From contig NC_086108.1 in NCBI RefSeq assembly GCF_963921235.1, positions 24,490,001 through 24,554,000 of the forward strand: 64,000 nucleotides of DNA, read 5' to 3'. Both the position numbers and the translations under genes were made by a program. The stretch is from Mobula hypostoma (Eukaryota). Of the stretch, positions 160 through 64,000 are shown one piece after another. Each line of letters starts with the position of its first letter. Position 1 is the stretch's first letter. The notes below the pieces were generated by a model. The model ran no database searches, was not told where the DNA came from, and saw only the letters and a program-made list of their open reading frames with translations.

Positions 160-608
160 TTACATCAAGGCCCAATACGAGCTTGAGGTAGAACACCCTC
201 ATCTTTTATCTGGGTAAATGGTAGGCTTCCAGATTTGATAAAGAATTCTCCAACTGAAGGTAACTCACTCTTTCTTTCTGTCTGCATCAGAACTTGCCAT
301 TTCTGTCTGTAGTCAATCTGTGATATTTGCTCTGGTTTTCTATTAATAAAGCAAGCAGAGTGGGGCATGCCCCACAGCCTTGCCACTTGCATCATATCAC
401 ACAGTCAAAGCAGTATAATCCACTTTTAACTGCCACAGTAGTCCATTTCATCTCACCTCACCCAACCCTCCCCAACGTTCTCTGCATTTAAAACCAATCT
501 TTTTCTCAAGTTCTGACAAAGGATTGTGGACCTAAAATATGAACACTGTTTCTCTCTCCATAGATACTGCCTGGTGTGCTGATTGTTTCCAGCATTGTTT
601 GTTTTTGT
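160..608 (+). mobile_element. Old Penelope-like element 3' end
   Basis: 165-270 resembles the GIY-YIG C-terminus (LEExHLIF.LG...FSNF) seen at 63685-63780. 512-608 resembles the terminus (decayed ctgac..aaa, then ccatagatactgcctgg...ccagcatt). Confidence 0.6.
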
Positions 609-629
609 TATGAACCTGTCCAATTACTT

Positions 630-800
630 GCAACACGCACAAGATGCTGGAGGAACTCAGCAGGTCAGGCGGCATCTATGGAAAAAAGTACGGTAGACAT
701 TTCAGGCCGAAACCATAGATACTGCCTGGCCTGCTGATTTCCTCCAGCATTTTGAGTGTGTTGCTCGGATTTCTAGCATCTGCAGATTTTCTCTTGTTTC
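630..800. mobile_element. Short fold-back element from the Penelope-like terminus
   Basis: gcaacacgcacaagatgctggaggaactcagcaggtcaggcggcatctatgg (~630-681) is inverted relative to ccatagatactgcctggcctgctgatttcctccagcattttgagtgtgttgc (~714-764). Confidence 0.85.
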
Positions 801-3025
801 TGTCTAGTTACTTGTTAGACTGGATTCACTTATGGGCACTAGGTAAGTACACCAGGATTCCACCTCCTCCCCCCACCCACCGCCAATCAGAAAAAAATTA
901 TTTTTATAAAAGTAAAGTGGCTTCATTTTGTCATTATGAAACTATATCATTATTTCAGTATTGTTTTTCATTAAATTCAATTCACAATCTGCATAGTAGA
1001 TTTATATCTCAAGTATTGCCAGCATTAATCCAGGATTATGGATTATAAATCTGAATTATCTGATCCAAGTACAAACAGGAAGCTTGGTGCACCATTTTTT
1101 CTTCTCTCTGGGCAACTTATTAAGTTATTGACATAGAGGGAAAATAGAGAATTAGTGAGAAATTATGAACAGGTGGATACTTTGTGAACTGCAGGTAAAT
1201 AACATTTTGCTCTTTTATGTACAGCAGGACTGGAAATCACTTGCAATTTACATCGGCAGTTTCTATGTACTGCAAATTGCAAATATCAGAAGGGAAAATA
1301 ACTAAAACGTCTGGTGCTTCCTGGAGGTGCATTCAGCACATTCCCAGAGAACTTTTCTACTTGTTTGCTTTAAGAAATTTCTTAGTTCTGTTTTTTTGCT
1401 CCCTGTAACACTGGTGAGAGTTTTTAAGTTTTCCTTTCACAGCTGGATGCAAATTTGAAATTGCTGGGTGCATTGCAGTTTAAAGTAAGCTTTTAAGATT
1501 TAATATTTGGGTAGGCACTGTTAATGCCCATGACAAAGGTAGTGTTTAAGAGTAATCAGCTAGAAACTTCCTTTATTATTAAGCAAATAGCAAGAAGCCT
1601 AGAACCTTGAAAAATACTTCCCCTTAAAATTAAATGAAACATTCACTGATAGGGTAAAAAAATAGCATGTTGTCATGAGTGCAACAAATTTTCTCCTCTA
1701 AACGCATTTACACTTACATCGTGGTACAACAATTATGCCAATATGAGGTAATTTATCATTTGCTTTACTATGTATCATTCACCTTCATGATTCCAGACCA
1801 GAGTAATGCAGCTCAGTGATTTGATGCTTAGGATGGAAAACCGATGTGACTTTGCTGGAGAATCAATTGTTGCAAACCATTGATTTACCGTTGAACTATG
1901 CACGGCTGTTTATTTGGAAATCCATGTGAGCGCAAGGATCAGTCTGAAGATTAGCTGCATGAACTAGGCTTCTCCGGAAAACAGTTCTCACTGCTGTTCA
2001 CCAAACAAGGGCTACAGCAGATGAGTGCCACATACACAAAATAATAAAGATAAAAATAGCTGGTTACCGGCTCTCATAGAGCACTGAACATATGGAAACC
2101 ATTGATGTCATTGAAAATAAAATGAACAGGCATTTAAAACAGCTAGTACCTCTAAATATGCTATATCCACTGACGTATGACCCTTATCTATATGTGTAAG
2201 CTTACATCTGTGAAAACCATGTAATTAAACTAAGTACACATAAGTGTTGATATTTGAACAGTAAACTAGTTAATTACAGCTGTATAATTCATTGAAGCCT
2301 GTCTATTTATTCTCTTTATTTCTATCTCCACTTCATGCCCAAATAGAAGACACTGAGTTACCAAGGGATGCAATACTACATTTCGAGCTGGCAATTAGAA
2401 TTTCACTAAATTCTCATGAGGTAACAGATACAAAGAGGTAGGTTGAACTTGTCATCCAAACATAAAACTGAAAATGAAACTCAAGTGGTTTCTTTAATGG
2501 ACAATCCACTATGTTAGTTTTACATCTCGATAGTTGTTAAAAATCCACCCATGAATTTAAAGAATGAGCTTGATCATGATGGATGTCACAGTGCACAGCT
2601 CCAAATTACATCAAGGCAGGCTGGGAATTTAAATTCTGTTTATTAAGCAGCTTCTGGAAAATTAAACCAAATAAAATCAGTTACTATTAGCATTGGAACA
2701 TTGAAGCTTACTGGATTGTTGTTAAAAAAAATCCATTCTGTCTTTTGAGATAGAAAATCAACTACCCTACACAAGTTTGACCTATGTGAAACTCCAGATC
2801 CACAGCAATCTGCTTAGTTCCCTGAATGTTGGTGAGAGCCTTTCCATTCAAGGGCAAGGAGTAATGCTCATAAAGTGTATGAATGAACATACGTAGTTAT
2901 GTTATGTGAACAATTCTAAGCTCCCTGTGGTCTGATTGGTGAAAGGGTACATTCTTCTCCCTGAACTTATGTTTATCTTGGTGAGCTTATTCAAATCAAA
3001 ACAGTTTTTCTTTTACAAATCTAAT

Positions 3026-4243: not shown

Positions 4244-6289
4244 TTCTTGTCTCAGTCCTAAATAGCTGATCCCATGTCCTGAGATCAGAACTCTTACTTC
4301 TGTATTTGCAACAGAGGGAAAAGAGAGTCACATGAGCCACAAATCCCTTGCATATTTCAATGAGGTCATGCTCATCCCCTGATGCTTCTAAACTCCAGCA
4401 ACTTGTGATGACAGAACAGATGAGGGGTCGCTGCCCAAAACATCAATTGTCCATTTCCCTTTTTCGATGTTGTGAGACTCACTGAGTTCTTCCAATGTTT
4501 TGTGTTACTCAAATTCTAATGAGCGGTCTTTGAACTGAAGCATGAGCTCAGTTTTTCTCTCCACATTTTGCCTATCCTTTCCTAAGAATGCTGTCACACC
4601 TGAGACCTCACACGATCGCTATGTGTGTAAGCTGTTGGGCCACATCCAAAACAGTGACCAGTTTATAAGTATCAACAAGCAACAATGAGATCTTGTAAGT
4701 TTGTCTCTAATCACTTAAGTCATTAATAAAAATCAAGTATGACTGAAAAACTGCTCTGATCTATATTGCACCCCAGAAGAAACAGCTGGGTATCTGAAAA
4801 TGGCCCATTTATTCCTACTCTTTTCATTCATCCCTCAGCATACTAATATACTGAACCTGGTAATGTGAGCTCTTATCTTGCAGAGCAGCTTTAGGTGTGG
4901 TACTTTATCAAATTAAATTTGAAATTCCAGATGCATCACTTCTATCAGTTTCCCCCTTTCTCCCTTTCTGCATCTTAAGTGAGGTAGACGCTTTTATGAT
5001 GTAGGAAATATGACACTCTTTGCAGACAGCAAGATCCTGCAAGCTGAAATGTGATAACGACCAGAACATCTGCTTTAGTGTTGTTGATTGAAAAATGAAC
5101 ATTGGCAGGAGAACAAAGACAAAACCTCTGCACTTCCTCAAATGGTTAGATAGAAATTAAAACATTTGTCTTCACTGAGCAACTGAATGTTGAGAGAAAG
5201 CAGACTGCAAAACATGGCCGAGTACTTGGTGTGCACATAGCATTCCTCCTGCCTCCTACATTGGTTTTCTATGCACACACAAGGAAACTGCTGGCCACTA
5301 ACATGCTGTCAATGTGCAGGCAATGAACCAGTGAAGGTACTTTTAATGACTTTGTTAGTTACATGGGTTATGACCAAAGAAAAAAATGGGTGAAGTTGCT
5401 TTAGCACTTTAGTCCAAGGATTATCAGGTAAGTCAAAAATCAAACTTACAAAAATTAGATAAAAAGAAAAATGTCAGTATTTACAAATGAAATTTGCAAT
5501 AAAACAATGATAGTCCATACTTATTCTTGTCCAGTGAGAACTGCTGGCAGCCCCCATTTCTCTCTCTCTCCTACTGAGGGTGAATAGCTTCTTTTCATTC
5601 GGCACTAGGAGATCACATCTTTAACTACACATCCCCATTACTGAAGAAATGGAATATTTTGCCATATTTGGTGGAAGAAGCACCATAAGGCCAACCCAAG
5701 TGTGTCAGGTGGGTTTAGGACCCAGTGGTTGCCACATGACTGCCTAGAAATGACAGATTGAAACAGCAAATTCTCAAAATAATTGCACACTTACAGTTAA
5801 GTACAAATGAAGAATGAAGTTGGTGTCTAACTTTGAATGCTTGTAACTATGTAAAGGGAAAACAGTGGATTAATTATGGGAATATATTTGGGAAGATATT
5901 GAAGTGCGTACACGCACAATGACATCAAAATGACAAGGCAATGTTTGTGTGTGAGTGAAGGAGCATGTGTAAAGTGGGTGTTTATTGAGTGTTCTCTATC
6001 ACAGACTTGCAGCCATGAACATGATATACCTGTATGTGTAGTCCTTAAATACAGAAGTTGACTGGCCTTGCATAGAGTACTCAGATCACTGGGAAAGGGA
6101 GTCCAGTGGGGAACTTCTCAGAGGAGCACCAGTGGCTACTTAATACATAAGGGATTCCTCTTATGTGTTAATATCCTCACTAACTGTTGCCACCATCTTC
6201 ACTCCCTACGATTGGAATTCCTTCCCTTTGATGTTAACTCAGTCTAATTTGATCACAAGCAATAAGCAACACAATTTACAGGTGTCATT

Positions 6290-6545: not shown

Positions 6546-7996
6546 ACCCTCTTTAGCACTGGTGACAGTTTGAGACTCTTGTGCCATCCGTTGTGAAAAT
6601 CCCAATTCTTCTATATTGTTTTAATTGTCAATTTATCAGTTTTAAAATTAAAAGCTTTCAAAGGCATTCAGTATTGCTTGTACTCTGCTGCAAAGATGTA
6701 TTTCTCCAGATTGCAGCTCTTTAACTGGCACCATGCCACTCGGTCTAATACTGTAATCTTGTCTAATATTTTCACTCACAACTCTGCAGGATGGCAGTGA
6801 CATTTACAAAGACTGCTCTTGGCTCCAACGTATAACACAATCTAATCGAAGGCCCAACACAGCTGTCATGAATCTTTCAACAGCTGCTTTATTCTGTCCA
6901 ATGAGGTTGTGTGAAACATTTTTCCCCTGAAATTGCAACATTTGGTTGACAAACAGAAGGTCACTGTATTCTAGAGAATGCCTCTAACTCATATATAAAT
7001 ATCAGCCTCTGGTTTGTTAAGATGATTAGATGTTTGTATTGACTCAAAAAGTGTCAATAGGTAAATAAGAAAGAAACAACTTGGAATGTTTTCTTGGCTG
7101 ATTTCCTACATCTTTTCCTCTAGCAGGTGTTGATGTTTCAGAAAATAACAGACAGATTATTTCCATAATTGTTTATAGACCTGAAGCCATACTAAGGCAA
7201 GAGATTCTGCAGATCCTGGAAATCTAGACCAAAACTGAAGCCACACTGATACCCAAGGTTTTAGCTAAGTATGCTTCTATAGATGATTTCACTTAGACAA
7301 ACTGGAATTAATGAAGCGAAGAGAACACAGCAAAAAAAAAACATTTTTGGAATGAACTTATTTATATGTTTGCCTTGTGGAATGCTGATTTATTCAAATT
7401 TTGATGATTTTCACCATGCTATGTTAATGATTATAGCTGGTACAACAACCAATACAGTTAAAAATAATTGCTCAATATGTCCAGATACAGATTATGAAAG
7501 CACCTTAAATCTTAATTACCTTACAAGGTAACAGAGCACTAAATAATCAGGGTTCCCCCGACTAAGTTAGAAATAAAGAACTTTCAACCATTTGAATAAA
7601 TAGAATCCCCACAATGCTGATTAAGCACTATTCTGCTGCGATGGGAATGGCCCTTACTTTGGTGAAAAATATTGGAACTATACAGTACATATTTTTATGT
7701 TGGCAAGTTTCTTACTCTGATGAGTGAGGCTTAGTGATCTTCAGACTATTGTGCGCCACCAGACACATAACCAAGGACTGGGCAATCAGAAAGGGAAGGG
7801 CTGGGAGGTCAAGTACCTGCACACTTCTATAAGTACCTAGGCTCTTACAAATCCATAGAAGTGTTAAAAGTTATCTAGTTGCTTAAAAAATGAATCCGGG
7901 ATTGTAGATTTTCAGACATTACTTGGATGAATTAATACAGAATGACATCCAAAGCCATTTCACTGACACTTAACGAAGCTGCATTTAAAGAATAGT

Positions 7997-8118
7997 CACA
8001 AACAGAAAATCTCCAGAAGCTGGAAATCCGAGACCCTTTGGCCCAAAACATCGACTGTACTCTTTTCCTAGATGGTGCCTGGCCTGCCCAGTTCCTCCAG
8101 CATTTTCTGTATCTTGTT
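7997..8118. mobile_element. Short inverted-junction Penelope-terminus element
   Basis: agaaaatctccagaagctggaaatcc (minus-orientation end) is joined to ggcccaaaacatcgactgtactcttttcctagatggtgcctgg (plus orientation). Confidence 0.75.
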
Positions 8119-15490: not shown

Positions 15491-16196
15491 CTCTGGAAGC
15501 TATTGCCAAGGACTCATTAATCAAAGTGTGCAGAAGGATAAGACCTTCCAGTGATAAGCACAGGTTGTGGGAAAATGTCGAAAATACAATAACAGACAGC
15601 AGTATAAATGAGCAGGCAGAGGAAAGGGTAATGATCCGTGCTGATGTGCTGACCATCTAATGGGTTTACTTGTTTATTTCATGATTACCTACATTATCAC
15701 ATCAAACACTTTAATAACACTATCGACAGAAGCACAAATAACAGTCTAAATTAAGTTTTAGCTCTCTGACAAACACGCTGTTCACAAGTTTAGGGTGGCA
15801 ATTCCAAGCGTACGTGCTGGCTCAGTGTGCTTAATTTTAATTCTTCACTTCTCCTTTTTGATGAGGTACTGGTCAATAGCCACATTCCTTTGCTGCACAG
15901 GAACTCTGATTCTCTTCATCTCCTTTCTATCCAAACAATTACTTGCTCCCCGACTTTTCAGTCTGAGAAGCATTCATCCTGAAATGTGGTTTCTCCCTCC
16001 ACTGATGCTGCTTGACCTGCTGAGCATGCACCACATTTTCTGTTTTTAATTCAGATGACAATTATACATATATTTAGTAGAAATGATGGTGAAACAAATG
16101 TTAGTTCACTTTTTGTTTCATTGTTATTTAAAACAATGCCTTCTGCTTCTGTTGGGATGCGTAATCACTGAGTATGCATGTGGAACAAGTGCACTA

Positions 16197-17748
16197 TGGA
16201 AAGGTACAGCACAAAAACAGGTCCTTAGGCCCACAGTGAAGTGCTAGACCAATTAAAATTAGTAATCAAATGGCCAACTAAACTAATCAATTCTGAATAC
16301 ACACTTTCATAGCCTTTTATTTCCTCACATCCATGTGTCTATCCAAACACCCCTTAGCAGTCTCTAATGTATCTGCCTCTACCACCACCCTAGGCAGCAC
16401 ATTCCAGACACTCACCACCATTCACTGTGATTAAAAAAAACATTACCCCTCACGTCTCCCTGAAATTAACCTCTATCACCATAAACGCCATCTGGAGTTA
16501 GATATTACAGTGCTTGGAGAAAGATATTGTCTGACTACTCTATCTATGCCTCTCATAATCTTATAAATATCAGATCTCCACTCAGTCTCCACCTCTCAAG
16601 TGAAAAAAAAGCAAAGTTTGTCCAACCTCTTGTTACAGCACATGCCCTTTAATCCAGACAACACCTTGATAAACTTCTTCTTCATCCTCTCCAAAGTCTC
16701 AGCATCCATTCTGCAAAGGTGTGCCCAGAATTGTATTCAATATGAAGATGTGGCTTAACTAGAGCTTTATAAAGCTGCAAAATAACATTCTGACTGTTAA
16801 ACTCAATGCCTCAACTACTAAACGTAAGCATGCCATTTACCTTTGTCCACCATTCTTTCAACCTATGTAGCTATTTTCGAGAACGATGATTTTTGACCCC
16901 AAGATCCCTCTGCTTATCAACACTGTTAAGGACCTTGCCCTCAACAGTGTACTGTCTCTTTGCTTTTGAGCTATCATATTTGACTGTCGTAAACCCCATG
17001 TGCCATATCTGCAACTAATCTATATCCTGTTGTATTCTTTGTTGGACTTCTATGCTATCCACAACATCAGCATTCTTTGTATCATCTGCAAACTTATTAA
17101 CCCACCCATGCACATTTTTATCCAGGTTACTTATTTACATCACAAACAGCGGAGGTCCAGTACAGATCCCTACATAACACCACTAATCACAGTCCTCCAG
17201 CTAGAATAAATCCCTTCGACCACTGTCCTGTCTTTTATGGACAAGCCAGTTCTGAATTCAAATGGAAAATTTATCTATATATAATTAAACACATAACATC
17301 ATGCAACCCACGCATCTTAATCTTCTGGATGAGCTTCCCATGAGGGATCATGTCAAATGCCTTACTAAAGTCCATGTAGACAACAACAATCATGCTCATC
17401 ACTTTATCAAAAAATTCAATCAAATTAGTCAGACACAACTTGCCCAGCACAAAGCCATGCTGGCTCTCCCCAATTAGGCCATGGTTTTCCAACTGCTCGT
17501 AAAACATATCCCTAAGAATTCTCTCCAGTAACTTCCACACCACTGATGTAAGACTAGTTTCTAGGACCATTCTATAGTTTCCAGGATTATTTCTGGTTCC
17601 CTTCCTGAATAATGAAACAAAACTAGTTACATGCTAGTCCTCCGGGATCTTGCCCTTGGCTAGAGAGGAAATGAAGGTATCGGTCAAGGTCCCAGAATTC
17701 TCTTCTCTTGCCTTTCTCAATAACCTGGGGTAAATCATCAGGCTCTGC
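16197..17748 (-). mobile_element. CR1 LINE, RT region to 3' end (decayed)
   Basis: ORF 17271..17570 contains SLTSVVWKLLERIL...QHGFV..KLCLTNLIEFF...YMDFSKAFD. CR1 tail near 16200. Confidence 0.9.
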
Positions 17749-25962: not shown

Positions 25963-28655
25963 ACAAGAGAAAATCTGCAGATGCTGGAAATTTCAAGTAA
26001 TATACAAAATGCTGGAGCAATTTAGCAGACCAGGCAGCATCGATAGAAAAGAGTATAGTCGACGTTTCAAGCAGAGACCTATCAGCAGGACTGGAGAAAA
26101 AAAGATGAGGAGTAGCGTTAAAAGGTAGAGGGAGGGAAAGGAAAAACACAAGGTGATAGGTGAAATTGAGAGGGACAGGGGTGAAGTAAAGAGCTTGGAA
26201 ATTGATTGGTGAAAGTAATACTAGGCTGGGGCAGGGGGGGATCTAATAGGAGAGGACAGAAGCCCATGAAAGAAAGAAAAGGGGGGGAGGAGCACCAGAG
26301 GGAGGCAATGGGCAGGCAAGCAGATATAGGTTGGAGGCTACACAGATAGAATACAAGGTGCTGTTCCTCCATCCTGAGTGTGACGGTAGAAAAGGCCATG
26401 GATAAACATATTGGAATGGGAAAGGGAAGTGGAATTAAAATGGGTGGCCACTGGGAGATCCCACTTTTTCTGACAGATGGAGCATAGGTGCTCAGCAAAG
26501 TGGTCTCCCAATCTACGTTGGTTCTCACTGATATACAGGAGGCCACACCGGGAGCACCGGACACAGTATATGACCCCAACAGGCTCACAGACTAAGCGTT
26601 GATTCACCTGGAAGGACTGTTTGGAGCCTTGAATGGTACTGAGCGAGGAGGTGTAGCAAATGTTCCATTTTCAAGGATAAGTGCTAGGAGGGAGATCAGT
26701 GGGGAGGGTCGGATGGACAAGGGAGCGATCCCTGTGGAAAGCAGAAAGTGGGAAGAAGGGAAATATGTGCTTGGTGGTGGGATCCAGTTGGAGATGGTGG
26801 AAGTTGCGGAGAATCATGTGCTGGACGTGAAGGCTGGTGGGGTGGTAGATGAGGACAAGAGGAACTCTAAACTTGGTAGGGTGGTGGGAGGGTGGGGTGA
26901 GAGCAGACATGCGTAAAATAGGAGAGATGCGGTTGAGTGTGGCATTGATAGTGGAAAAAGTGAAGTCCCTTTCTTTGAAGGAGGACTTCATTCTAAAATG
27001 AAAATCTTCATCCTGAGAGCAGATGCTGCTGAGGTGGAGGAATTGAGAGAAGGGGATGGCACTTTTACAAGTAACAGGGCGGGAAGAGGTATAGTCTGGG
27101 TAGCGGTGAGAGTCGATGGGTTTATAATAGATATCATTAGATAAGCTGTCTCCAGAGGTAGAGACAGAGAGAACAAGAAAGGGGAGGGAGGTGTCAGGAA
27201 TGGATCAGGTAAATTTGAGGGCAGGGTGGAGGTTGGAGGCAAAGTGGATGAAGTTGACGAGTTCTGCATGGGTGCAGGAAGCAGCACCAATGCAGTTGTT
27301 GACATAACATAGGAAAAGTGGGGGAACAGCTGCCAACACAGGCTTGGAACATAGACTGTTCCACGCAGCCAACAAAAAGGCAGGCACAGCTGGTACCCAT
27401 GTGAGTGCCCATGGCTAGACATTTTGTTTGAAGGAAGTGGGAGGAGCCAATGGAGAAATTATTAAGATTGAGGACAAGTTCTGCTCAGCACAGGAGAGTA
27501 GTGGTGGAGGGGAACTGGTTGGTTCTGGTGTCCAGAAAGAAATGAAGAGCTTTGAGGCCTTCCTGGTGGGGGACGGGGGAGTATAGAGACTGGACATCCA
27601 TAGTAAAAATAAGATTATGGGGCCAGGGAACTTGAAATTATTGAAATGATCCAGAGCATTTGAAGTGTCACAGATGTAGGTAGGAAGGGACTGAACTAGG
27701 GGGAATAAAACAGAGTTGAGGTATGCAGATGTGAGTTCAGTGGGGCAGGAACAAGCTGAAACAATGGGCCTACCTGGACAAGTCTGATTGTTGATCTTGG
27801 GTAGGAGGTAGAAACAGGAGGTGTGGGGTGCAGGAACTATGAGGTTGGTGGCAGTGGATGGGAGATTCCCAGAGCTAATACTGTTAGTGATGGTGTGGGA
27901 GACAATGGCCTGGTGCTCCATAGTGGGGTCTTATTTGAGGGACAAATATGAGGAGGTGTTAGAAAGTTGTCACTGGGCCTCAGCAAGGTAGAGGTCAGTA
28001 CAACAGGTTAATACAGCACACTCCTTATCTGCAGGTTTGATGATGAGATTAGGATTAGTGCAGAGGGAGTGGAGAGCACAGCCTTTGCAAGGAGTGAGGC
28101 TGATATTGGAGAAAGGAGTGTTGAAGTTGAGACGGCTGATGTCCCTTCGGCATTTGGCAATGAAATGATCCAGAGCAGGCAGAAGACCAGGGTGGCAGGG
28201 TGGGGTGTCCAGGGAGGAAGGTTGAAGACAGGAGAAGGGGTCATTGGTGGGGGGTGGAGTGTTCTCCAACCTGATGGCAATACCATCGATTTCTCAAACT
28301 TCCGGTAATGGCCCATTTCCTCCCCCCCCCCCCCGCCCATGTCACTCTTTCATCATTCCCTCCCTCACTTTATCTCCTTGCCTGCCCATTGTCTCCCTCT
28401 GGTGCTTCTCCCCCTTTCTTCCATGGCCTTTAATCCTCTCTTATTAGATTCCCCCTTTTCCAGCCCTGTATCTCTTTCACCAATCAACTTCTCTGAACTT
28501 TACTTCATCCCTCTCCCTCTCAGTTTCACCTATCACCTTGTGTTTCTCCCTCTCCTCCACCTACCTTTTAACTCTACTCCTCATCTTCTTTTCTCCAGTC
28601 CTACTGAAGAGTTTCAGTCCAAAGCATCGACTACTCTTTTCCATAGATGCTGTCT
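25963..28655 (-). mobile_element. Penelope-like retroelement (RT + GIY-YIG) with inverted 3' arm
   Basis: IIKPADK, YLLPKI, GRPIVS, MGTHMG, HPALKFT and GVIYCVRCSRCGLLYISE...FAEH. Inverted copy of the 3' end at 28264-28655. Flanked by tcacagtaaat / tcacagtagat. Confidence 0.93.
26056..26093 (-). ncRNA. Minimal hammerhead ribozyme, core variant CUGCUGA
   Basis: cagtc-CTGCTGA-taggtctctgctt-GAAAC-GTC-gacta. A6 of the CUGANGA core is replaced by C. Confidence 0.65.
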
Positions 28656-30615: not shown

Positions 30616-31904
30616 CTGCGGGGATAAAGAATGGGTAAAATCATTACAGATTGAACAAAAGATAGCATGCTATCTGAGTACAACACTAAAATGATTGCGA
30701 TGAAAGATCTGCCCATTTCAGTCAATGTGACTACCAGCTTGAATAGCACGTTACTCTTTTGCCTATAATAACAAATCACCCAATTATCCTTTACCCTCCT
30801 TGGTACTTTATTTAATAGATTTGCTTATTTATGTTTATTGTTTGTTTTTTCTCAAACATTGTTACATTCATTTATGTATTTTGAATAAATATACTCAGCA
30901 AAGTGCTCCGGGTGGTAATCAAATGTAAAGGACACACAGCAGTAAGTTTAGAATCTAACTGAAGGGTATGATTGCTGAAATATTATTTATCTTGTATGAG
31001 TGTATGCTTCCTACCAATTAACCAGAGGCTCTAGTGACATTGGAGTCACAGTCACAAAGTAAAACAAGGATGTAAACTTATGTGTCTATACTTTCAAACT
31101 TTGTAGCTTCAGATCTCAAGTTTAAGGGACCATAAGACAGAGGAGCACAATTTAGCCATTTTGCCCATTAAGTCTCCATTGTAAGTTTGAATGATTGTCC
31201 ACCATACCTTCCAGGTTCTGGGTTCTTTAATCCACTCCTACATGTTGCTCAAAGTGTTAGCTTTCTCATTAATCATTGACATTCATTATCAAGCGCACTT
31301 TATGCCTCACAGTCCATTGTTAACCTCTGGCTGGAACTTCCAGCCAATGCAATAGTATATATGTCTGTCATGTACACTTCTCTGACAACATCTGACCTTC
31401 TTTGCTTTGGGTCATTTTTTTCACCCTACTGACATGCATATCCTGCCCTGTATCAGCCAGCAGCCACTATTACACCGGCCTTCCCAGTTAAAAAAAAGAA
31501 TCAAGGTGCAAACCAGTTGCAATTGAATTGAATAATTGAAGGTGCTCAGGTAGCTGACTGACCTACTCATGTTCCCAAATGTCATGTCACAGGTGAAAGT
31601 TTAATCGGTAAAAATGCGTTCCTCTCCATCACCTTGCCAGGCTGCCAGTCACACTGAGTGGTGCTCTGCTTCAGGAAACAATCACATAAACTTCAGTCCC
31701 AAAGCAGATTCTCAGTCTGAAACATCAACGATCCCTGTGCCTCCTGAAATACTGCATGACCCAACGAGTTCCTCCAGCAACTTGCAAACATTTCACCTTG
31801 ATTTGAAATGTATTTCAAATTTTATTCTTTAATTCTCCCTGTGGTTTCCACTAGGAAGAAATGTTTCAAAAGTTGGCCAGAATCAACAAAAATATTTCTG
31901 CAAC

Positions 31905-33075
31905 ATTGGACAGTACAGCACAGGAACAGGCCCTTTGGTCTACAATGCCATGCCGAACCAATTATATCAGAAAGCAAATGGTCAACTAAACTAGTCCCTA
32001 TTGCCTAAAAGGTCCATATCCTTCCATTTTTCTCAAAGTCCTGAGCCCATCTAAATGTCCTTTAGAAGTCCCAAATTATAAGCTTTTACCACCACCCTAG
32101 GTAGTGCATTCCAGGCACCCAACATTCATTCTCTATGTAAATAAGCTTGCTGTTCATATCTGTGTCACTTGTCCTGAAACATCAACTGTTTATTCATTTG
32201 TTCACAGATTCTGCCTGGCCTGCCGTGTCCCTCGAGCATTTTGTGTGCGTTGCTCCTCAAAAGTCCTTGAAATTATTCCCTCTCACCTGAAATGCATGCC
32301 ACTCTGCTGTTAGACATTTCAACCCTGGGAAAAATATACTGTCTGTTAACTCTATCTATGCATCTCATGCCTCTGTCAAATCTTCACTCAGTCTCTGCTG
32401 CTTCGAGCCAACAACCCTAGTTTGTCCAGCCTCTGATGACAGCACGTGCTGTCTAATCCAGGTAGCATCCTGCTAAATCTCTTCTGCATCCTCGCCAAAG
32501 CCTCAACATCCTTCCTATAGTACAGTGACTAGAAATGAACTCAATACTCCAGATGTGACCTAACTAGAGTTTCATAAACCTGCAACATAACTTCATGACT
32601 TTCGAATTCAGTGCCTCAACTAATAAAGGCACGCATGCCATATACCTTCTTAACCATATGTATAGCCACTTTCAAAGAGTTATGAACAGGAACCCCAAGA
32701 TTCCTCTGCCCTTCAACACAGTTAAGGGTCTTGCCATTAACAGTGTACTGTTTCCACTTTACATTTGACCTACCAAGGTGCAATACTTGACGGATGTTCA
32801 GGTTAAACTCCATCTGCCATTTCTCCATTCATATCTACAACTGATCAAAATTCCACTCTATTCTTTAGCAGTCATCTATCCTATCCACAACACTTGTCAG
32901 TCTTTGTATCATCTGCAAACTTACTAACACACCCATTTATGATATTATCCCTGATTATTAGTACAACTCCAGCTCCCACAATTCTTTTACCTTCCTCTCT
33001 TTCTTTCTTAAAACATCCAAACCCTGGAATATTAAGCAACTGTACCGTCCTGGTTAAGATTTTTACTGCTAAGGC
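31905..33075 (-). mobile_element. CR1 LINE, internally deleted, with a Penelope-terminus piece at ~32170-32255
   Basis: ORFs 32616..32828 (KWQMEFN...VLHLGRSN) and 32881..33090 (SKFADDTK). CR1 tail near 31905. CR1 sequence resumes at ~33887-34040. Confidence 0.8.
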
Positions 33076-40848: not shown

Positions 40849-41186
40849 CTGAACGCTGTTGAATTTTCTCTCTTTCTGCATAACTTCACATAAGTCCTAA
40901 AACTATATGAGAACAAAATTAAATAAATAACACAAAAAATTATACTTGTTCATTTAATTATTGAGAAAACTGATCCAATATTTCATGTGGAGTATTTGTT
41001 GGAATAAGTATGTGAACCTGTGGGGTAATGCCTTCTACAAAAAGCTATTTGGAGTCAGGTGTTCCAACCAATGGAGTCAAATTGGAGGTGTAGGTTGTAG
41101 AGATGCCCTGCCCTCTGAAAAAAGGCAACAAAGTCAGGTTACTGACAGAGTCTGTTCTTCTCAAGAAAGATTTGATTATGTGCACC

Positions 41187-42164
41187 ATGCCTCGATTAAA
41201 ACAACTTTCACAGGACCTTAGAAGATGAATTGTAGAGATGCATGAAGCTGGAAAAGGCTACAAAAATATTCCTAAAGATCTGAGTGTTCATCAGTCCACA
41301 GCAAGAGAAACTGTCTACAAATGGAGAACACTTGGTACTGTTGCTACTTTCCCTGGGAGTAGGCATCCTGCAAAGATCACACTAAGAGCACAACGTACTG
41401 TGCTAAAGCCAGTGAAAAAGAGCCCAAGGGTAACAGCAAAAGACCTGCAGAAATCTCCGGAACTTGCTGAAGTATCTGTTCATGTGTCCATTATAAGAAA
41501 TACACTGAACAAGAATGGTGTTCATGGAAGGACACCACGAGGGAAACCACTGCTCTCCAAAACAAAATATTCCTGCACATCTCAAGTTTGCGAAAAACCA
41601 CCTGAATGTTCTACAATGCTTCTGGGGCAACATTCTGTGGACAGAGGAGACAAAGTTGAACTCTTTGGCAGAAATGCACATTACCATGTTTGGAGGGAAA
41701 AGGGCACTGCACACCAACACCAAAACCTCATCCCAATTATGAAGTATGATGGAAGGAGCATCATGGTTTGGGGCTGCTTTGCTGCCTTCGGAACTGGACA
41801 GCTTGCAATCATTGAGGGACCAATGAATTTTACAAGAGAATGTCAGGATGGCAGTCCATCACCTGAAGTTTCATAGAAGTCGGATAATGTAACAAGGCAA
41901 GAGTAAAACAACAACAGAATGGTTTAAAAAAAAGAAGATTTGTGTTTTGGAATGGCCAAGTCAAAGTCCTGACCTTAATCCTATAGAAAAGACCTGAACC
42001 AAGCAGTCATGCAAGGGAGCCCCCCTAACATCCCAGAGTTGAAGCAGTTTTGTAAGGAGAAATGGCCTAAGATTTCTTCAAGCCAATGTGCAGGACTGAT
42101 CAACAGTTACCAGAAACATTTGGTTGAAGATATTGCTGTACTAGGGGGTCACACCAGTTACTGA
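41187..42164 (+). pseudogene. Tc1 transposase pseudogene
   Basis: HEAGKGYKNI...(HTH region), ILWTEETK, GRSIMVWGCF and [13 protein letters not shown], broken by stops and frameshifts. Confidence 0.88.
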
Positions 42165-44614
42165 AAGCGAAGGTTCATATACTTTTTCCAACACATACAT
42201 GTAATATTGGATCATTTTTCTCAATACATGAATGAGCAAGTATAATTTTTTGTGTTATTTATTTAATTGGGTTCTCTTTATCTAGTTTTAGGACTTATGT
42301 CCACATCTGATCGAATTTTAGATCATATTTATGCAGAAATAGAAAAAATACTACAGGGTTCACGAAACTTTCTAGCACCACTGTACATAGTGGGGATTTG
42401 GTAAAGTACATTCCTATGGGTAGAGAATGGTGTGCGATTGATGAGAGGGAAACAGATTAATCAATCTGTATATAGCAAAGAAATAGATTCCTGAACTGGT
42501 AATTCCAGTAAAAATGAATTTAATCATTGCCAGAAAGATGAAAAATGAAAACGAAAGCCTGTACCTTTATAAGCAGTGCCATGCATTTCAATTCCTAGCC
42601 TTTGGCTCCCTACTGCCTCTCTGGATTTAAACATTGTGAGACTGTCTGGACTAAAGTACTCGGCACACATGTATAGTAGCAGTAATCTAGGGACTTGCTT
42701 CTTGAAAAAGTTAGCTGTGCCATAGGATTACTGACTATGACCCTTAAAGCCTTGCAATGTTTCTCTATTCCAGAGCATCAATAGTGCTGTAAGTGGAATG
42801 CTTGTCTGGTATGCAGCATTCCCAGTGTCATTAACAGTACAATACATGAAGGAGAGCTTGCCAATATTGACACCTGGCTGGCCCTTTCTAGTTATGAATT
42901 GTACTTGCACTAAGTAGGTAATTTTTGCATCAAATACACAGTTAGAGCTTTCATCGACATCACAGTGCTCCTTCAGATAGCCCCCCTCCGTGCACATTCT
43001 CAAAACCCAATGAAGTTTTAATGGGCTGTGTATAACTCAGCAGTGCCATATGAAATTGACCTCTCAGAGGAGTTTGCAACTACCAGCACTCTAACATGGG
43101 TAGCCCTCTACACAATTTAACTTAAATACAGAGGAAATTTCTTCTTTATTTTAACCTTTATCCCGCAATCCCTTCAGCTAAGATTTCTCAGCTGACTTCT
43201 TCAGCCACAATCTTTCACTTTCAACCTCTCACTAACCACTGTCCCTGCAATTCCGCTGGCTCCTAATGCTAGAGTCCTTTCAGTGCTTGTCATGGACTTA
43301 AGAAAAAAAATACTTGCACTCTTCACAGTTGCACAATACTGTGTGGAAAATGTGCACTGACTGTTCTGTGCTGGTCCATTGAATACCTTGGCCTTTGCAC
43401 ATGATTGAATCTTTAAGTGATCCACAATAAAACCACCTTCGGCATGCTATAGAATGATGCATTAACTTGCCCATGATTAATAGTCTTTGAAATTCTAGCA
43501 CATTTCCCACAAAGACATCAGGTGGTTTAAAATGAATTTCAAATCAAAATATGTATATTAAAACAAATTACTATGTAAAATAATGCTCTTAACAATAAAC
43601 GAAAATTATTTTGCTTTCCATCTCCATTTCTTGAAAAAATTCAATCGCTAACTTCATCCACATGATGCTTTACTTTGAAGAACAAATGGGTCCTTGTGTT
43701 CTTGATTGAATACCTTTCAAAATCATCAGCTAGAATTGCACACAAAATGCAAAGGATGTTGTCATATTTTCCCCTGATTCTAGGGTGGAAAGGATAAATC
43801 TTATCTCTACTTCCATCCCATGAGCTCAAGTCACTTTACACAGATCGATACAAGGGCTTTGTGGTCTGCATAGCTCAGATGCTGACTGCACTTCAGATGT
43901 CAGGGACTGCAGAGTTTAGTTTTTAAATGCCACTTTCCTGACCTATATGCTGACTTTACAATAAAGCTTGATCTGTCTTACTGTACACCAACAAATCAAT
44001 GTTAGTTACATAGGACCATGACATAGTCAGGGAAGTGCTCAAGCTGAACAGATCCAAGTCCTTTCAACTAGTAAATTGTTTCATATGGATCCTGTGTCAC
44101 AGATTGATTGATGATAACCAAAAATTATGCTGAGAAGGTAAAATTAACAGCATCTGCCAACAGACTAATACAAAAAAGTCTTATAATAATGGGTTAAAAT
44201 CATCCAGAAGTGCGTTATAGCTGATAGTTCCACTGAAATGTCACCACTGCACAACGTTAATCACACACAGCAAAATCTCACTAAAGCATGAAGGTGATCA
44301 AATTAAGGAATAATCATGGGCCAAGATACTGGATCTAAGTCCCCTGACCTTTACTGGGTCGTTAGTCATTTTGCATTGGTGTTGGACAGAGAGGGTTTCA
44401 ATTCCACATTTATCTGAAAGATAGCATTTCCAAGAGAGCAACAACGCCTGAATACTGGACTGGATTTTCAGTGCAATTTTCTCTGACCAAGTTTCCAGAA
44501 TGGGACTTGAACCCAGAAACTTCCAACTCGGAGATGAAATGCTACTAACTGAAGCATGGCTGACAGGTGTCAATGTTACAGAGCTTTAAGCAGCTAGTGA
44601 CAGATGACAGTAAC

Positions 44615-44780
44615 GACCAACGTGCTAGAGGAATTCAGCGGGTTGAGCTGCAAATGAGAGAGAAAAGGGGTTATTGATGCTTCAGGTTGAAACCCTGCAT
44701 CAGGTCTTCCCTTCCACGGATACTGTTCAAACTGCAGGGTGTGTGTTCCTCCAGGCTCCAGCATCTACCTCTCCTGTGCC
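44615..44780. mobile_element. Decayed Penelope-terminus fold-back
   Basis: gctagaggaattcagc...tgcttcaggttgaaaccctgcatcagg (reverse strand CTGATG...GAAGC), then a plus-orientation ttccacggatactg...ccagcatct. Confidence 0.55.
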
Positions 44781-44831
44781 TCCCAACTCTAAGCAGCTAT
44801 GACGTATGCATCCCAAAGTATTGAACCAATA

Positions 44832-45627
44832 TAGTCATAGGCATAGTCATACTTTATTAATCCCGGGGAAAATTGGTTTTCATTACAGTTGCTCCATAAA
44901 TAATAAATTGTAATAGAACCATAGATAGTTAAATAGTAATATGTAAATTATGCCAGTAAATTATGAAATAAGTCCAGGACCAACCTATTGGCTCAGGATG
45001 TCTGACCCTCCAAGGGAGGAGTTGTAAAGTTTGATGGCCACAGGCAGGAATGACTTCCTATGACGCTCTGTGCTGCATCTCGGTGGAATGAGTCTCTGGC
45101 TGAATGTACTCCTGTGCACACCCAGTACATTATGTAGTGGATGGGAGACATTGTCCAAGGTGGCATGCAACTTAGACAGCATCCTTTTTTTCAGACACCA
45201 CCGTGAGAGAGTCCAGTTCCATCCCCACAACATCACTGGCCTTACGAATGAGATTGTTGATTCTGTTGGAGTCTGCCACCCTCAGCCTGCTGCCCCAGCA
45301 CACAACAGCAAACATGATAGCACTGGCCACCACAGACTCGTAAGACATCCTCAGTATTATCCGGCAGATGTTAAAGGACCTCAGTCTCCTCAGGAAATAG
45401 AGACGGCTCTGACCCTTCTTGTAGACAGCCTCAGTGTTCTTTGACCAGTCCAGTTTATTGTCAATTCGTATCCCCAGGTATTTGTAATCCTCCACCATGT
45501 CCACACTGACCCCCTGGATGGAAACAGGGGTCACCGGTACCTTCGTTCTCCTCAGGTCTACCACCAGCTCCTTAGTCTTTTTCACATTAAGCTGCAGATA
45601 ATTCTGTTCACACCATGTGACAAAGTT
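44832..45627 (-). mobile_element. Rex1/Babar LINE 3' fragment
   Basis: ORF 45172..45669 (LQLNVKKTKELVVD...YKYLG...QSRLYFLRRLRSF) and 44985..45236 (SFLPVAIKLYN). Short-repeat tail near 44835. Confidence 0.92.
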
Positions 45628-46272
45628 ATTGAATATAAAATATTGAATCAATGGAACATTCTCTGTCAATGAACAAAACAGGAAGCAAGACAGAGTCTGT
45701 CATCAAACCCTCGTGCTTAAATCTTTCTTGCCACAACTGATAAGACTTGTTTTATTTTAAATATGGGGATCTCTCACAGCCCAGCATTATGGATTGGACA
45801 AGATTGTGAAGCTAATTTACAGTTCTTGATCCACCAACTGTCTGGAGATTGGCCAATACAATCATGAGGACCAAAAAGATTGTTCCTTGTGCTCTCTGAT
45901 TCCATAGAAGACCCTGCATTCTTACAGCATTTTTCAAGTCCACTGGATACAGCAATGGTTTTACAAGCAATTAACTGCTTTTCAAAATTAATCATCATTA
46001 AAATGACATAGGTACAGAATCTAAGTTACCTTTTGACCAGAAGGTTGGCTAGGCTCCAAGAAGTACTTCATAACATACAATATATTCCAGTAGCTCTCTA
46101 TTAGGGAAAAACCTTGTCATATTTCGAGGTGTTGTAGAGTCTAAGTACATAAATAGGCACTGTGGACCACAATTTCCCCCACATCCTTCAACAACCTTTG
46201 GGTGTCACGATAGCATAGCGGTTACAGCGACATTCTGAAGTTCGGAATTCAATTCCAGTGCCTTCTTTAAGG

Positions 46273-46474
46273 AACACACACATCATGCTGGAGGAACTCA
46301 GCAGGCCAGACAGCATCTATGGAAAAGGGTGAACAGTCAATGTTTTGGACCGATACACTTGCTGAAGACTGTTTACTCCTTTCGATAGATGCTGCTTGGC
46401 CTGCTGAATTCCTCCAGCATTTTGTGTGTGTTGCTTTGGAGTTCTAGCATCTGCAGATTTTCTCATATCTGTGA
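46273..46474. mobile_element. Penelope-terminus fold-back, after a SINE head at ~46200-46272
   Basis: acacacacatcatgctggaggaactcagcaggccagacagcatctat...aacagtc is inverted relative to gactgttt...atagatgctgcttggcctgctgaattcctccagcattttgtgtgtgt. Confidence 0.88.
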
Positions 46475-60810: not shown

Positions 60811-61305
60811 TGGAACAACTTATCACGTAGCTAATTGGCTTGGGATAGGCTCATACCAATAATGCATTCTGCAATCCCTTTATGTTGCTTAGAACTTGAA
60901 ATTCAGATAAGCTCATGAAAGATCAAATGAGGAAATGCGTCACATGTTCCTACAGTGAGGATGCAAAACAGTAACTCCTTTTGAATTTTGAGCGTGCTTC
61001 AGTAAAGGACAAGAAGGAGCAAAGTGCAGGGAGGAATATGAACATGTGACAAAGGGTTTGAAGGAGATGAGAGAGGAGTGAAGGATGAAGAGAATTAAAG
61101 TGAAGGAAATAGGGAGAACTAAACAATGAGAATGGATTGAGGAAAGGCTGGAAGGAGGAAAGGAAGGAGAGGGAGGGTGAAAGTGCTTGAGTTGAACAGA
61201 GTAAAAGAAGATGAAGAAACGGAAGTAGGAGATGGGGAGGGAGAAGCAAAGTGGATGAATAAAGTGAATGAGCTAGTAAGAGATTTGTGGTTAGAAAGCC
61301 AAGGC

Positions 61306-61440
61306 ATGAGAAAATCTGCAGATGCTAGAAATCCAAGCAACACACAAAAAATGCTTAAAGGAACTCAGGCCGAAACATCGACTGTACTCTTTTCCATAGA
61401 TGTTGCCTGGCCTACTGAGTTCCTCCAGCATTTTGTGTCT
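61306..61440. mobile_element. Penelope-terminus fold-back
   Basis: gagaaaatctgcagatgct...acacaaaaaatgcttaaaggaactcag is joined to gccgaaacatcgactgt...ctgagttcctccagcattttgtgt. Confidence 0.85.
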
Positions 61441-63256
61441 ACGGCTGGGAGGCCAAAGCTGTGACTCCTGTAATGTGTGAGCAATTCCTCTTTGGGAGAT
61501 ATTGAGTATTTTAAAGCTCAGAAATGGTAAAAGGGTTTTGCATGCTGGAATAAGATTTAAGTTTTAAATATAATAAATGCTAGCTGTACTCACATTGAAA
61601 AACACTCTGGATAAAATTACCAATTACAGCCCAACATACGTGCTTTGTTTCAGTTACTTTGAGAAAATCTTCATTTCTCAGCCAAATAGCTGTAATTTAA
61701 AAGATAAATATTGCAGTTAAGCGTTCTGTTAAAACAGACACTGGAATTTGTATAGATCCTTTTTTTATATTGCCATTTTGTTTGCTGCATGACTTATCAG
61801 GTTTAACAGTTTGAAACTAAATTATTATTTAGATAAAGCATAAAACCAAATGAGTTTTCAGAGCAACATAATGGTTGGCTAAAATGTGCTGAAAAATATT
61901 TTCTCCAATTCTTTTGTATGGAATATTCTGAAACCTGCATAAATCACATCTCAATGAGCAAATTTAAGGATTCAAAGGAGAACATAGGCACTGAGAAGGA
62001 AAGGGGGCTCGGTAGAGAATACAGAAGTGGCCAATGAGAACCATAAACATATGGAGAGAATCACTGCAGAAACATAGATGAGAGAATGTTTGCAAAAGTT
62101 AATGTTGGTTACACAGACACTGAGGCAGAGGAAATTATATTGTAGAATGATGGAAATTTGCTGAGTAATTAAATATATTGTGTCTGAGCCAAGTAAATGT
62201 TGATTAATGAAACGGAAGAGCTAATATAAAATTATGGAGAGGAAACCATGAGGTTTGACAAATGGTCTTGAACAAAAAACATTCTTTTTCCACAGATACT
62301 ATACATGAATCAAAGTTCACACGCATGTTCAGCCGTCAGTTAGGGAAGTATAAAGTATATAGTATATTTCCCTTAATTGCAAGATGATCAGATTAAGAGA
62401 ATTTGTGTTTCAATTGTATGGAGCTGTGGTGAAACTGCACTTGAAATATTATTGAGACTGTTTACCCTTTTCCATAGATTCTACCTGGCCTGAGGTTCTC
62501 CAGCATTTTATAAAGGATGCTTCTCATTTTTCTTCTTCACTTCTCCTCACCTTTCCTTTAGCTTTCTTTCCTTCATTTATATTTCCTTTCTTATCTTGCC
62601 TTTTGAAAGCCCTTTCTTGTCCTTTCCTCTTTCCATCTGTTGCATGCTGTTCCCACCACTAATCCTCCACCTTCTGCACCCGAGAGCTGTCTCTGGTCTC
62701 AAGAAAGTCGTCTGCCGTATCTTCACAGCAGGTTAATACTTGTGGCAATTCAATCAGCCATTTCTGCCATGTATTCCTTTCCCTGTTTATCTAACTAGGT
62801 GAAAACAAAAGGTCCTCATATATGATTCAAAGAGGAGCAGATGATATAAGCCTGCAGTATTAACATATATTTATCCCATAATCAGATTTATGTTAACTTA
62901 TCATGTTTGTCATGTTTATAATGCACTGTACTGCCAGTCCCAAAGCTAATTTACACTCTGTATGTACACCTACGATAATAAACTTAAATAGCAAGCTTCA
63001 TTAGTGTTATAGAACTACATTTGTACTAAATTTGTTCCAAAAATACTTCACTGGTTGCAAAACACTTTGAGATAAAAATAATGAAATCAAGTGTATGAAT
63101 TCAATCTATTTGTTCTTTTATCCTAAAATTTAACTTCCACACCTGGAGTTAGAGATATTAATGTGTACTTCTTAATAATATGCCTTACAATCAAGTCTAA
63201 ATTAGTCTCCTGGCAGAGTCTCCATTTTGTGTGTAAACTGAACTGTAACAGCTTGT

Positions 63257-64000
63257 ACACAACAGGAATTCTGCAGATGCTGGAAATTCAAGCAACACAC
63301 ATCGAAGTTGCTGGTGACGCAGCAGACCAGGCAGCATCTCTAGGAAGAGGTGCAGTCGACGTTTCAGGCCGAGACCCTTCGTCAGGACTAACTGAAGGAA
63401 GAGTGAGTAAGAGATTTGAAAGTTGGAGGGGGAGGGGGAGATCCAATATGATAGGAGAAAACAGGAGGGGGAGGGATGGAGCCAAGAGCTGGACAGGTGA
63501 TTGGCAAAAGGGATACGAGAGGATCATGAGACAGGAGGTCCGGGAAGAAAGACGGGGGGGGGGGGGGAACCCAGAGGATGGCAAGGGGTATATTCAGAGG
63601 GACAGAGGGAGAAAAAGGAGAGTGAGGGAAAGAATGTGTGTATAAAAATAAGTAACAGATGGGGTACGAGGGGGAGGTGGGGCATTAGCGGAAGTTAGAG
63701 AAGTCGATGTTCATGCCACCAGGTTGGAGGCTACCCAGACGGAATATAAGGTGTCGTTCCTCCAACCTGAGTGTGGCTTCATCTTTACAGTAGAGGAGGC
63801 CGTGGATAGACATGTCAGGATGGGAATGAGATGTGGAATTAAAATCTGTGGCCACTGGGAGACCGCTTTGCTGAACATCTACGCTCTGTCCGCCAGAGAA
63901 AGTAGGATCTCCCAGTGGCCACACATTTTAATTCCACATCCCATTCCCATTCTGACATGTCTATCCACGGCCTCCTCTACTGTAAAGATGAAGCCACACT
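63257..64000 (-). mobile_element. Penelope-like 3' end with inverted arm, running off the window
   Basis: ORF 63685..63924 contains PVATDFNS...EATLRLEERHLIFRLGSLQPGGMNIDFSNFR (GIY-YIG C-terminus). From 63861 the same sequence runs in plus orientation. Confidence 0.92.
63353..63390 (-). ncRNA. Minimal type I hammerhead ribozyme, intact core
   Basis: UAGUC-CUGACGA-AGG gucucgg CCU-GAAAC-GUC|GACUG: stem I UAGUC/GACUG, stem II AGG/CCU, palindromic ACGU stem III. Predicted cut between 63358 and 63357. Confidence 0.88.

Follow-up and report, generated by a model that had tools for sequence, protein, structure and literature searches.

The question raised by this locus is how the end of a ribozyme-bearing retroelement came to lie in two opposed copies at positions 630-800 of the window (the whole 64,000-nucleotide stretch analysed here, whose numbering is used throughout) and at four further short loci. 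An earlier note on this DNA had offered two answers: a non-autonomous, ribozyme-associated palindromic system of retrozyme- or MITE-like type, or the abortive synthesis or collapse of longer inverted insertions of Penelope-like elements (PLEs).

Anatomy of the five short loci

At all five loci the 3' end of a PLE, probably of Neptune type, is present in two opposed pieces, with the 3' ends outward (Table 1). They are described in a frame taken from the copy at window position 25963, where position 1 is the 3' end of the element; in this frame the hammerhead motif occupies 95-130 on the opposite strand, with a predicted cut at 98/99, whose exact position is deduced from the minimal type I motif described in PMC4209133. 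Arm ends were placed by eye, to within a few nt. A profile built from the window arms found 22 matches to a single terminus across the 64 kb: the main arms at 630, 8036, 46266 and 61358 gave E-values of 1e-23 to 1e-31, and weaker matches were the left arm at 61302 (5e-15), the tail at 8002 (1e-3) and 44619 (5.5e-5), values that are not independent, as most such arms sat in the profile seed. The best E-value in five reversed or shuffled windows was 0.097. The earlier description of one terminus occurring in both orientations, head to head, is thus borne out for the opposed arrangement at all five loci and has to be corrected for the ends themselves, which are not the same: in every short element one arm carries a tail of ~33 nt that the other lacks. 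None of the five contains an ORF of 120 aa or more, in agreement with the absence of coding sequence noted before.

Table 1. Features of the Penelope-like insertions in the window (frame positions count from the 3' end of the copy at 25963)
Positions	Strand	Feature	Evidence or remark
616..630	+	Left target-site duplication, 15 bp	13/15 identical to 800-814
631..714	-	Tail-less arm, frame ~33 to 117, inner end in hammerhead stem II	
692..714	-	Decayed minimal hammerhead, 3' half: stem I 3' strand, cut site, GAAA core, part of stem II	Aligned to complete motif of the 63259 copy; pattern scan
713..799	+	Tail-bearing arm, frame 84 to 1	45/52 identical to left arm
765..799	+	One-sided ~35-nt tail, unpaired in the hairpin	
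800..814	+	Right target-site duplication	Pairs with 616-630, 2 mismatches
7197..7233	-	Tail-only 37-nt insertion (frame 3-37)	13-15-bp duplication
7999..8116		Tail (frame 1-33), short stem II-like filler, then opposed core 115 to 32	
25963..28652	-	Long copy: decayed RT and GIY-YIG body, tail on the left, ~390-bp inverted tail-less arm on the right	tblastn 643 aa, 40%, E 2.7e-126
44607..44786		Two-armed copy of an old subfamily: tail-less arm (frame 33 to ~131) opposite a degenerate one that starts at ~90	
46272..46468		Hairpin-forming copy in which a tail-less arm (frame 34 to ~130) faces a tail arm (99 to 1)	
61306..61439		Hairpin-forming copy with a tail arm (frame 2 to 63) and a tail-less one (~112 to 39)	
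63259..64000		Younger-subfamily long fold-back running off the window end	

The first element, which had been delimited as 630-800, spans 631-799, bounds that are set by its 15-bp target-site duplication, whose score is matched by 1.5% of 2000 random site pairs. Positions 713-714 at its junction are common to both arms, a 2-nt microhomology, and the CUGAUGA half of the hammerhead is missing from it. The unit at 44607 is bounded by a 22-23-bp duplication (44584-44606/44787-44808) with a score of 28, where 0.15% of 2000 random pairs reach 26; its right arm, at 44709, is old and weakly supported (nhmmer E 0.089), and the score of its alignment to the other right arms was equalled by 1-3 of 500 shuffles. 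At 7999-8116 there is a possible, weak 10-bp duplication, and at 61306-61439 the flanking duplication is not significant (37% of random pairs attain its score of 14). A search of the flanks of 46272-46468 found no duplication. The joint of this last element lies at the 4-nt stem I complement, and its tail arm begins at the predicted cut site. The adjacent stretch 46200-46271, which we take to be a SINE-like 5' fragment, stops exactly at the left arm and does not continue on the right, suggesting a deletion at insertion.

Ends, junctions and folding

The asymmetry of the ends extends to their positions. The tail-less arm has its outer end at frame 32-39 in each of the five short elements and its inner end at 117 (630), 115 (7999), ~131 (44607), ~130 (46272) and ~112 (61306), whereas the tail arms end inwards at 84, 33, ~90, 99 and 63, in no case more than one base past the cut. 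Inverted matches at the joints, judged by eye, measure 2 nt at 630, 4 nt at 46272, ~4 nt at 61306 (allowing a 3-nt deletion) and 7 nt at 63862. No junction is common to any pair among the seven elements of the window, the best score between different elements being 19/40, so that the earlier observation of differing junctions holds; unique as they are, these junctions do not look uniformly spread. Duplications exceed the 5% random level in four of seven elements tested for them (630, 44607, 25963 and 7197) and are weak or absent at 7999, 46272 and 61306.

The designation as fold-back elements suits three of the five loci, where DNA folding gives hairpins beyond those of shuffled sequences (z of -8.8 at 630, -11.9 at 46272 and -5.2 at 61306; 0 of 100 shuffles in each case), and does not suit 7999-8116 (z -0.6) or 44607-44786 (z +0.6). 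The former of these two has no hairpin because its arms, tail 1-33 and core 32-115, do not overlap. Sizes run from the 37-nt tail up to 2.7 kb. Judged by their sequence, the arms come from at least two subfamilies and probably three: a 2-nt insertion marks 46272, 44607 shares ~50-60% identity with the rest, and 63259 is a separate type.

The parent element and other copies in the window

The Penelope origin proposed for these loci is confirmed by the long copy at 25963, which bears the same terminus at both ends, head to head as in the short loci, and has relatives with RT and GIY-YIG domains. Its natural ORF matches 106 proteins, the top three from cartilaginous fishes, and among the 106 many have RT and some GIY-YIG Pfam domains; the alignments to P0004 (643 aa) and P0039 (625 aa) run through RT and GIY-YIG, both Pfam domains being on record. 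A Cys-rich linker between RT and endonuclease, described as the defining trait of Neptune (PMC3846280), is found in the relatives P0004, P0039 and P0056, and the window copy is decayed there. The parent is Penelope-like in the broad sense and probably of the Neptune clade, and the top protein matches point to an elasmobranch host genome. Pfam and PDB sequence searches of the decayed parent, covering 24 of 25 long ORFs and three read-through frames of the long element, gave no identification. The copy is flanked by a 14-bp duplication (25949-25962/28653-28666), directly against which its inverted arm has its outer end, at frame ~73 and not ~36.

The second long element, at 63259, turns ~600 nt in, at 63862/63908, inside the GIY-YIG coding part and on a 7-nt inverted match, and its stretch 63770-64000 is a near-perfect palindrome (97%); the end of its partner arm falls beyond the window. 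Relative to the 25963 copy, it has an apparent internal deletion between 63721 and 63770.

Older solo termini are also present at 501-603, 4411-4512, 15958-16060, 31692-31790 and 32170-32255. A further solo, tail-less copy at 62455-62512 starts at most a few bases away from the predicted hammerhead cut site and sits in what we presume to be a CR1 LINE fragment. The six solo copies all share one orientation, with the element sense on the + strand; a search for their duplications found none for five of them, and for the sixth only a far, low-complexity 9-mer. Other residents of the window are a DNA transposon resembling Tc1/Sleeping Beauty, which has long inverted repeats and part of a transposase (40850-42362), and LINE-type remnants with an ALKBH8_N-like domain and an RT fragment, at 45172-45699 and 17271-17633, both on the - strand. 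No tRNA genes were found in the window.

The hammerhead motif

The terminal repeat contains a predicted minimal type I hammerhead, with a complete core found by pattern scan at 63385 on the minus strand (~63353-63388), the sole full core in the window, and decayed forms elsewhere. That the terminus is ribozyme-bearing is therefore supported by the pattern, with aligned remnants in other copies, and finds no counterpart in Rfam, where a search of the window at E<=1 gave four chance-level matches and no hammerhead. The only local hammerhead fold to stand clearly above shuffles was that of the 46325 region, which is part of a hairpin.

As had been noticed before, one arm ends within the motif at each of the five loci. 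This is the tail-less arm, whose inner end falls in the 36-nt hammerhead in five of five short elements and in five of seven when the long ones are included. The probability of at least five such ends in seven ranges from 0.06 to 5e-5 depending on the null, for an idea that came from the same data; under a uniform 50-150 null it is 0.06, and that of at least eight ends in 14 is 0.08. Inverted microhomology of at least 3 nt has a share of 0.017-0.021 at frame 95-130 against 0.025-0.032 at 50-94, and beyond 130 the frame is 75-80% purine with about half the microhomology. The supply of microhomology was set aside as the cause of the pile-up: it partly explains the fall-off beyond 130 and does not explain the lack of ends at 50-94.

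The junction in outside assemblies

Contigs from four of 24 public runs, of which X1 may be the source sample, aligned to window 480-900. In organism B, a close relative, the left end of the 630 insertion is present with 1 difference in 178 nt. Over the arms the summed depth reached 10^6-10^7, against ~10-13 on the single-copy flank contig, and from such depth ratios the number of termini in the genome is, roughly, of the order of 10^5 or more. Junction base 712 had a depth of 476 in run X1 and 254 in X5, and the 712/713 junction is considered not amplified because these depths amount to 3-4 x 10^-4 of the value at base 721 of the arm. In single-copy depths, base 712 corresponds to at most ~37 (X1) and ~25 (X5), against ~10^5 at base 721; depth does not equal copy number, base 712 falls in a part of this copy that has diverged and some joints are uncounted in X1 and X9, therefore the figure for 712 is a bound, not a count. 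This is the sole junction that was compared with data outside the window.

Head-to-head joints among the best 15 of 478 had 1-3 contigs each. Seven of them can be placed on both sides, a set that leaves out joints marked 'between: not known': three, all from run X22 (708-760, 707-761 and 680-779), fit the hammerhead pattern, and four (664-722, 670-733, 663-781 and 662-713) lie outside it, in a layout that favours seeing such joints. The terminus is present in X22, a run guessed to be RNA. The strongest contig support among the same best 15 goes to the tail-to-tail joints 799-630 (8-17 contigs) and 765-799 (14-15 contigs), seen in X1 and X5, in which the tail end abuts the tail-less end; they perhaps reflect an element that inserted into its own end, or fold-back units in tandem. 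Viral, metagenome and prokaryote collections, scanned by pattern, returned 3, 0, 1 and 16 loci, and all 20 were dropped because in no case did the similarity to the terminus profile extend past ~35 positions around the seed.

Origin of the short loci

The short loci are probably separate, dead-on-arrival insertions of a very abundant Neptune-clade PLE, made by two-strand priming and cDNA joining. They look like the shortest form of a described PLE insertion mode and not like a new self-spreading element. The anatomy of the insertions, their duplications, the parent ORF and the unique junctions are direct observations. As the route at these loci we infer two-strand priming, with the following order of events. 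The GIY-YIG endonuclease would nick both target strands ~14-15 bp apart, and RT would prime on both nicks, from one RNA or two; the outer start site would give the tail-bearing arm, and a start ~33-40 nt inside the tail-less one. After stopping early, the two cDNAs would be joined by their 5' ends, often with the help of an inverted microhomology of 2-7 nt. Overlapping copied stretches would yield a hairpin (630, 46272, 61306), their lack of overlap a plain inversion (7999), and long synthesis the classical element with an inverted pLTR (25963, 63259), while 7197-7233 would be the smallest product of the outer start site.

There are precedents for such a route. In the in vitro work on an Anolis Poseidon element, as described in PMC11167929, the PLE protein cuts and extends both target strands, the tail being the stretch between two RT starts, and twin and dual priming are described for L1 (PMC2837659). 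The PLE pattern reported in PMC8557442, PMC3846280 and PMC8969392 joins an inverted 5'-truncated copy to a 30-40-bp tail at one end, and in Schistosoma pairs of min-HHRs on opposite strands, 100-700 bp apart, are on record (PMC4209133). Snap-back of a single cDNA as a general route is rejected by inference, because one cDNA cannot add a tail or give the non-overlapping copy at 7999.

Abortive synthesis or collapse of inverted PLE insertions, the second of the two answers first offered, fits the data, and the collapse could also have come late, the short forms being what is left of longer palindromes that lost their centres once inserted. Long near-perfect palindromes do exist (63770-64000), microhomology-mediated deletion of PLE copies has been reported (PMC3846280), and the filler at 8033-8039 fits a loss between 5-nt direct repeats. 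Later deletion does not by itself account, though, for the tail-only insertion at 7197 with its intact duplication or for the consistently longer tail-less arm, and PLEs are described as 5'-truncated already on insertion (PMC8969392). We hold this origin to be quite unlikely, even if sequence alone does not separate joining at insertion from later deletion. Two-strand priming, for its part, has against it the lack of a significant duplication at 46272 or 61306 and its weakness at 7999, the start of the inverted 25963 arm at ~73, and the hammerhead ends, seen in each of the five short elements and not expected from random truncation.

These ends might be understood if the insertion route is the same and the hammerhead sets the cDNA stops, with a folded or protein-bound stem II/core blocking RT from the inner site, the ribozyme cut capping the other arm, or both; this would be a modifier and not a separate class, and we regard it as possible but doubtful. 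The inner ends of the tail-less arms (112-131) and of the tail arms (at or before 99) speak for it, as do the three X22 joints that follow the pattern, the four of six solo copies that appear to start at frame 102-135, upstream of which no element sequence was detected, and an inverted microhomology that is not richer at 95-130 than at 50-94. On the other side, the loci were picked as short and tested on the same data, where the uniform null leaves P at 0.06 and 0.08; four of the seven placeable head-to-head joints (among the best 15 of 478) miss the hammerhead; and the ends spread over 20 nt rather than one base. Some cut-off at 130 is expected anyway because the upstream sequence is purine-rich, with about half the microhomology, in old solos the upstream homology may just have faded beyond detection, and an arm to ~119 whose middle was lost later is a possible reading of 7999. 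By the account in PMC11167929, hammerhead mutants left PAc insertion unchanged in vitro and no RNA reads ended at the cut. Only tentatively, then, can the hammerhead be said to leave an in vivo footprint, in which cDNA from the inner site would stall in stem II/core (frame 110-130) and tail-bearing cDNA would rarely pass the cut.

Far less probable is the first answer, a non-autonomous palindromic family whose unit-length RNA is copied by the PLE RT. The terminus is extremely abundant, PLE derivatives of such a kind are described (MRC1, PMC8557442; tandem retrozymes, bioRxiv 10.64898/2026.07.22.740005), and 44607 and 46272 both turn at frame ~130. These two belong, however, to different subfamilies with 49/99 identity, none of the seven window elements has a junction in common with another, and 712/713, the sole one compared outside the window, is not amplified. 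Neither is there a tandem array of units, and the 630 element is without half of the catalytic core. Nor did the contigs, a kind of data ill suited to it, reveal a position at which many molecules start or stop. With the mixed subfamilies, the asymmetric ends and sizes from 37 nt to 2.7 kb, the proposal of a retrozyme- or MITE-like system is not upheld, and for 630-800 it is already largely refuted.

Comparison with known systems

The candidacy of these loci as an undescribed system falls with their anatomy, which matches the insertions of endonuclease-bearing PLEs as published (PMC8557442, PMC3846280, PMC11167929). Like the complex tandem or inverted insertions reported there, the seven elements of the window have an inverted 5'-truncated copy adjoining the 5' end; the one-sided 30-40-nt tail, seen in all five short elements, the target duplication and the predicted hammerhead in the terminal repeat are further common features. 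What differs here is that the body is cut to 35-130 nt, therefore only the termini remain; that the element is probably of the Neptune clade, in a cartilaginous fish and at very high abundance; and that the duplications measure 13-23 bp, against the 8-10 bp given for Adineta. With the twin and dual priming of L1, as depicted in PMC2837659, they have in common two opposed cDNAs, one per nick, joined internally inside one duplication, and the layout of 7999-8116 is non-overlapping as in twin priming; unlike L1, they lack poly(A), the second cDNA starts at a preferred internal position, and the arms often have 25-65 nt in common and fold into hairpins. Non-LTR retrozymes (PMC7229834; bioRxiv 10.64898/2026.07.22.740005) are likewise described as non-coding and PLE-related, of ~120-200 nt and with a type I hammerhead motif, but as head-to-tail fixed units with complete hammerheads and circular RNAs. 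The elements of the window are head-to-head, single and variable, with mostly partial or decayed motifs, and no head-to-tail tandem units each with a complete hammerhead were found in it.

The definition of MITEs is taken partly in its general sense. These are short and non-coding, with inverted ends and a target duplication (PMC5172404), as are the loci described here, whereas in the latter one end has an unpaired ~35-nt tail, length and centre vary per copy, and the parent is a retroelement and not a DNA transposon. A fixed structure with a shared internal junction in many dispersed copies was not found among the seven window elements or, for 712/713, outside. Such two-armed copies should not be annotated as MITEs.

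The class of insertion is already known, and the window holds a new, very abundant member of it. In the openly accessible literature, to which the search was confined, we found no publication that treats these elements in elasmobranchs or a clustering of junctions at the hammerheads of PLEs. How the inverted ends of PLEs form and what the hammerhead does are presented as open questions of the field in PMC8557442, and the in vitro study, as reported in PMC11167929, found no role for hammerhead cleavage. If the footprint of the hammerhead is real, the short two-armed copies would record, as a fossil map, where RT started and stopped and what state the ribozyme was in during PLE integration. A genome with ~10^5 or more of these termini would make both the formation of inverted ends and the role of the hammerhead testable by a census of junctions.
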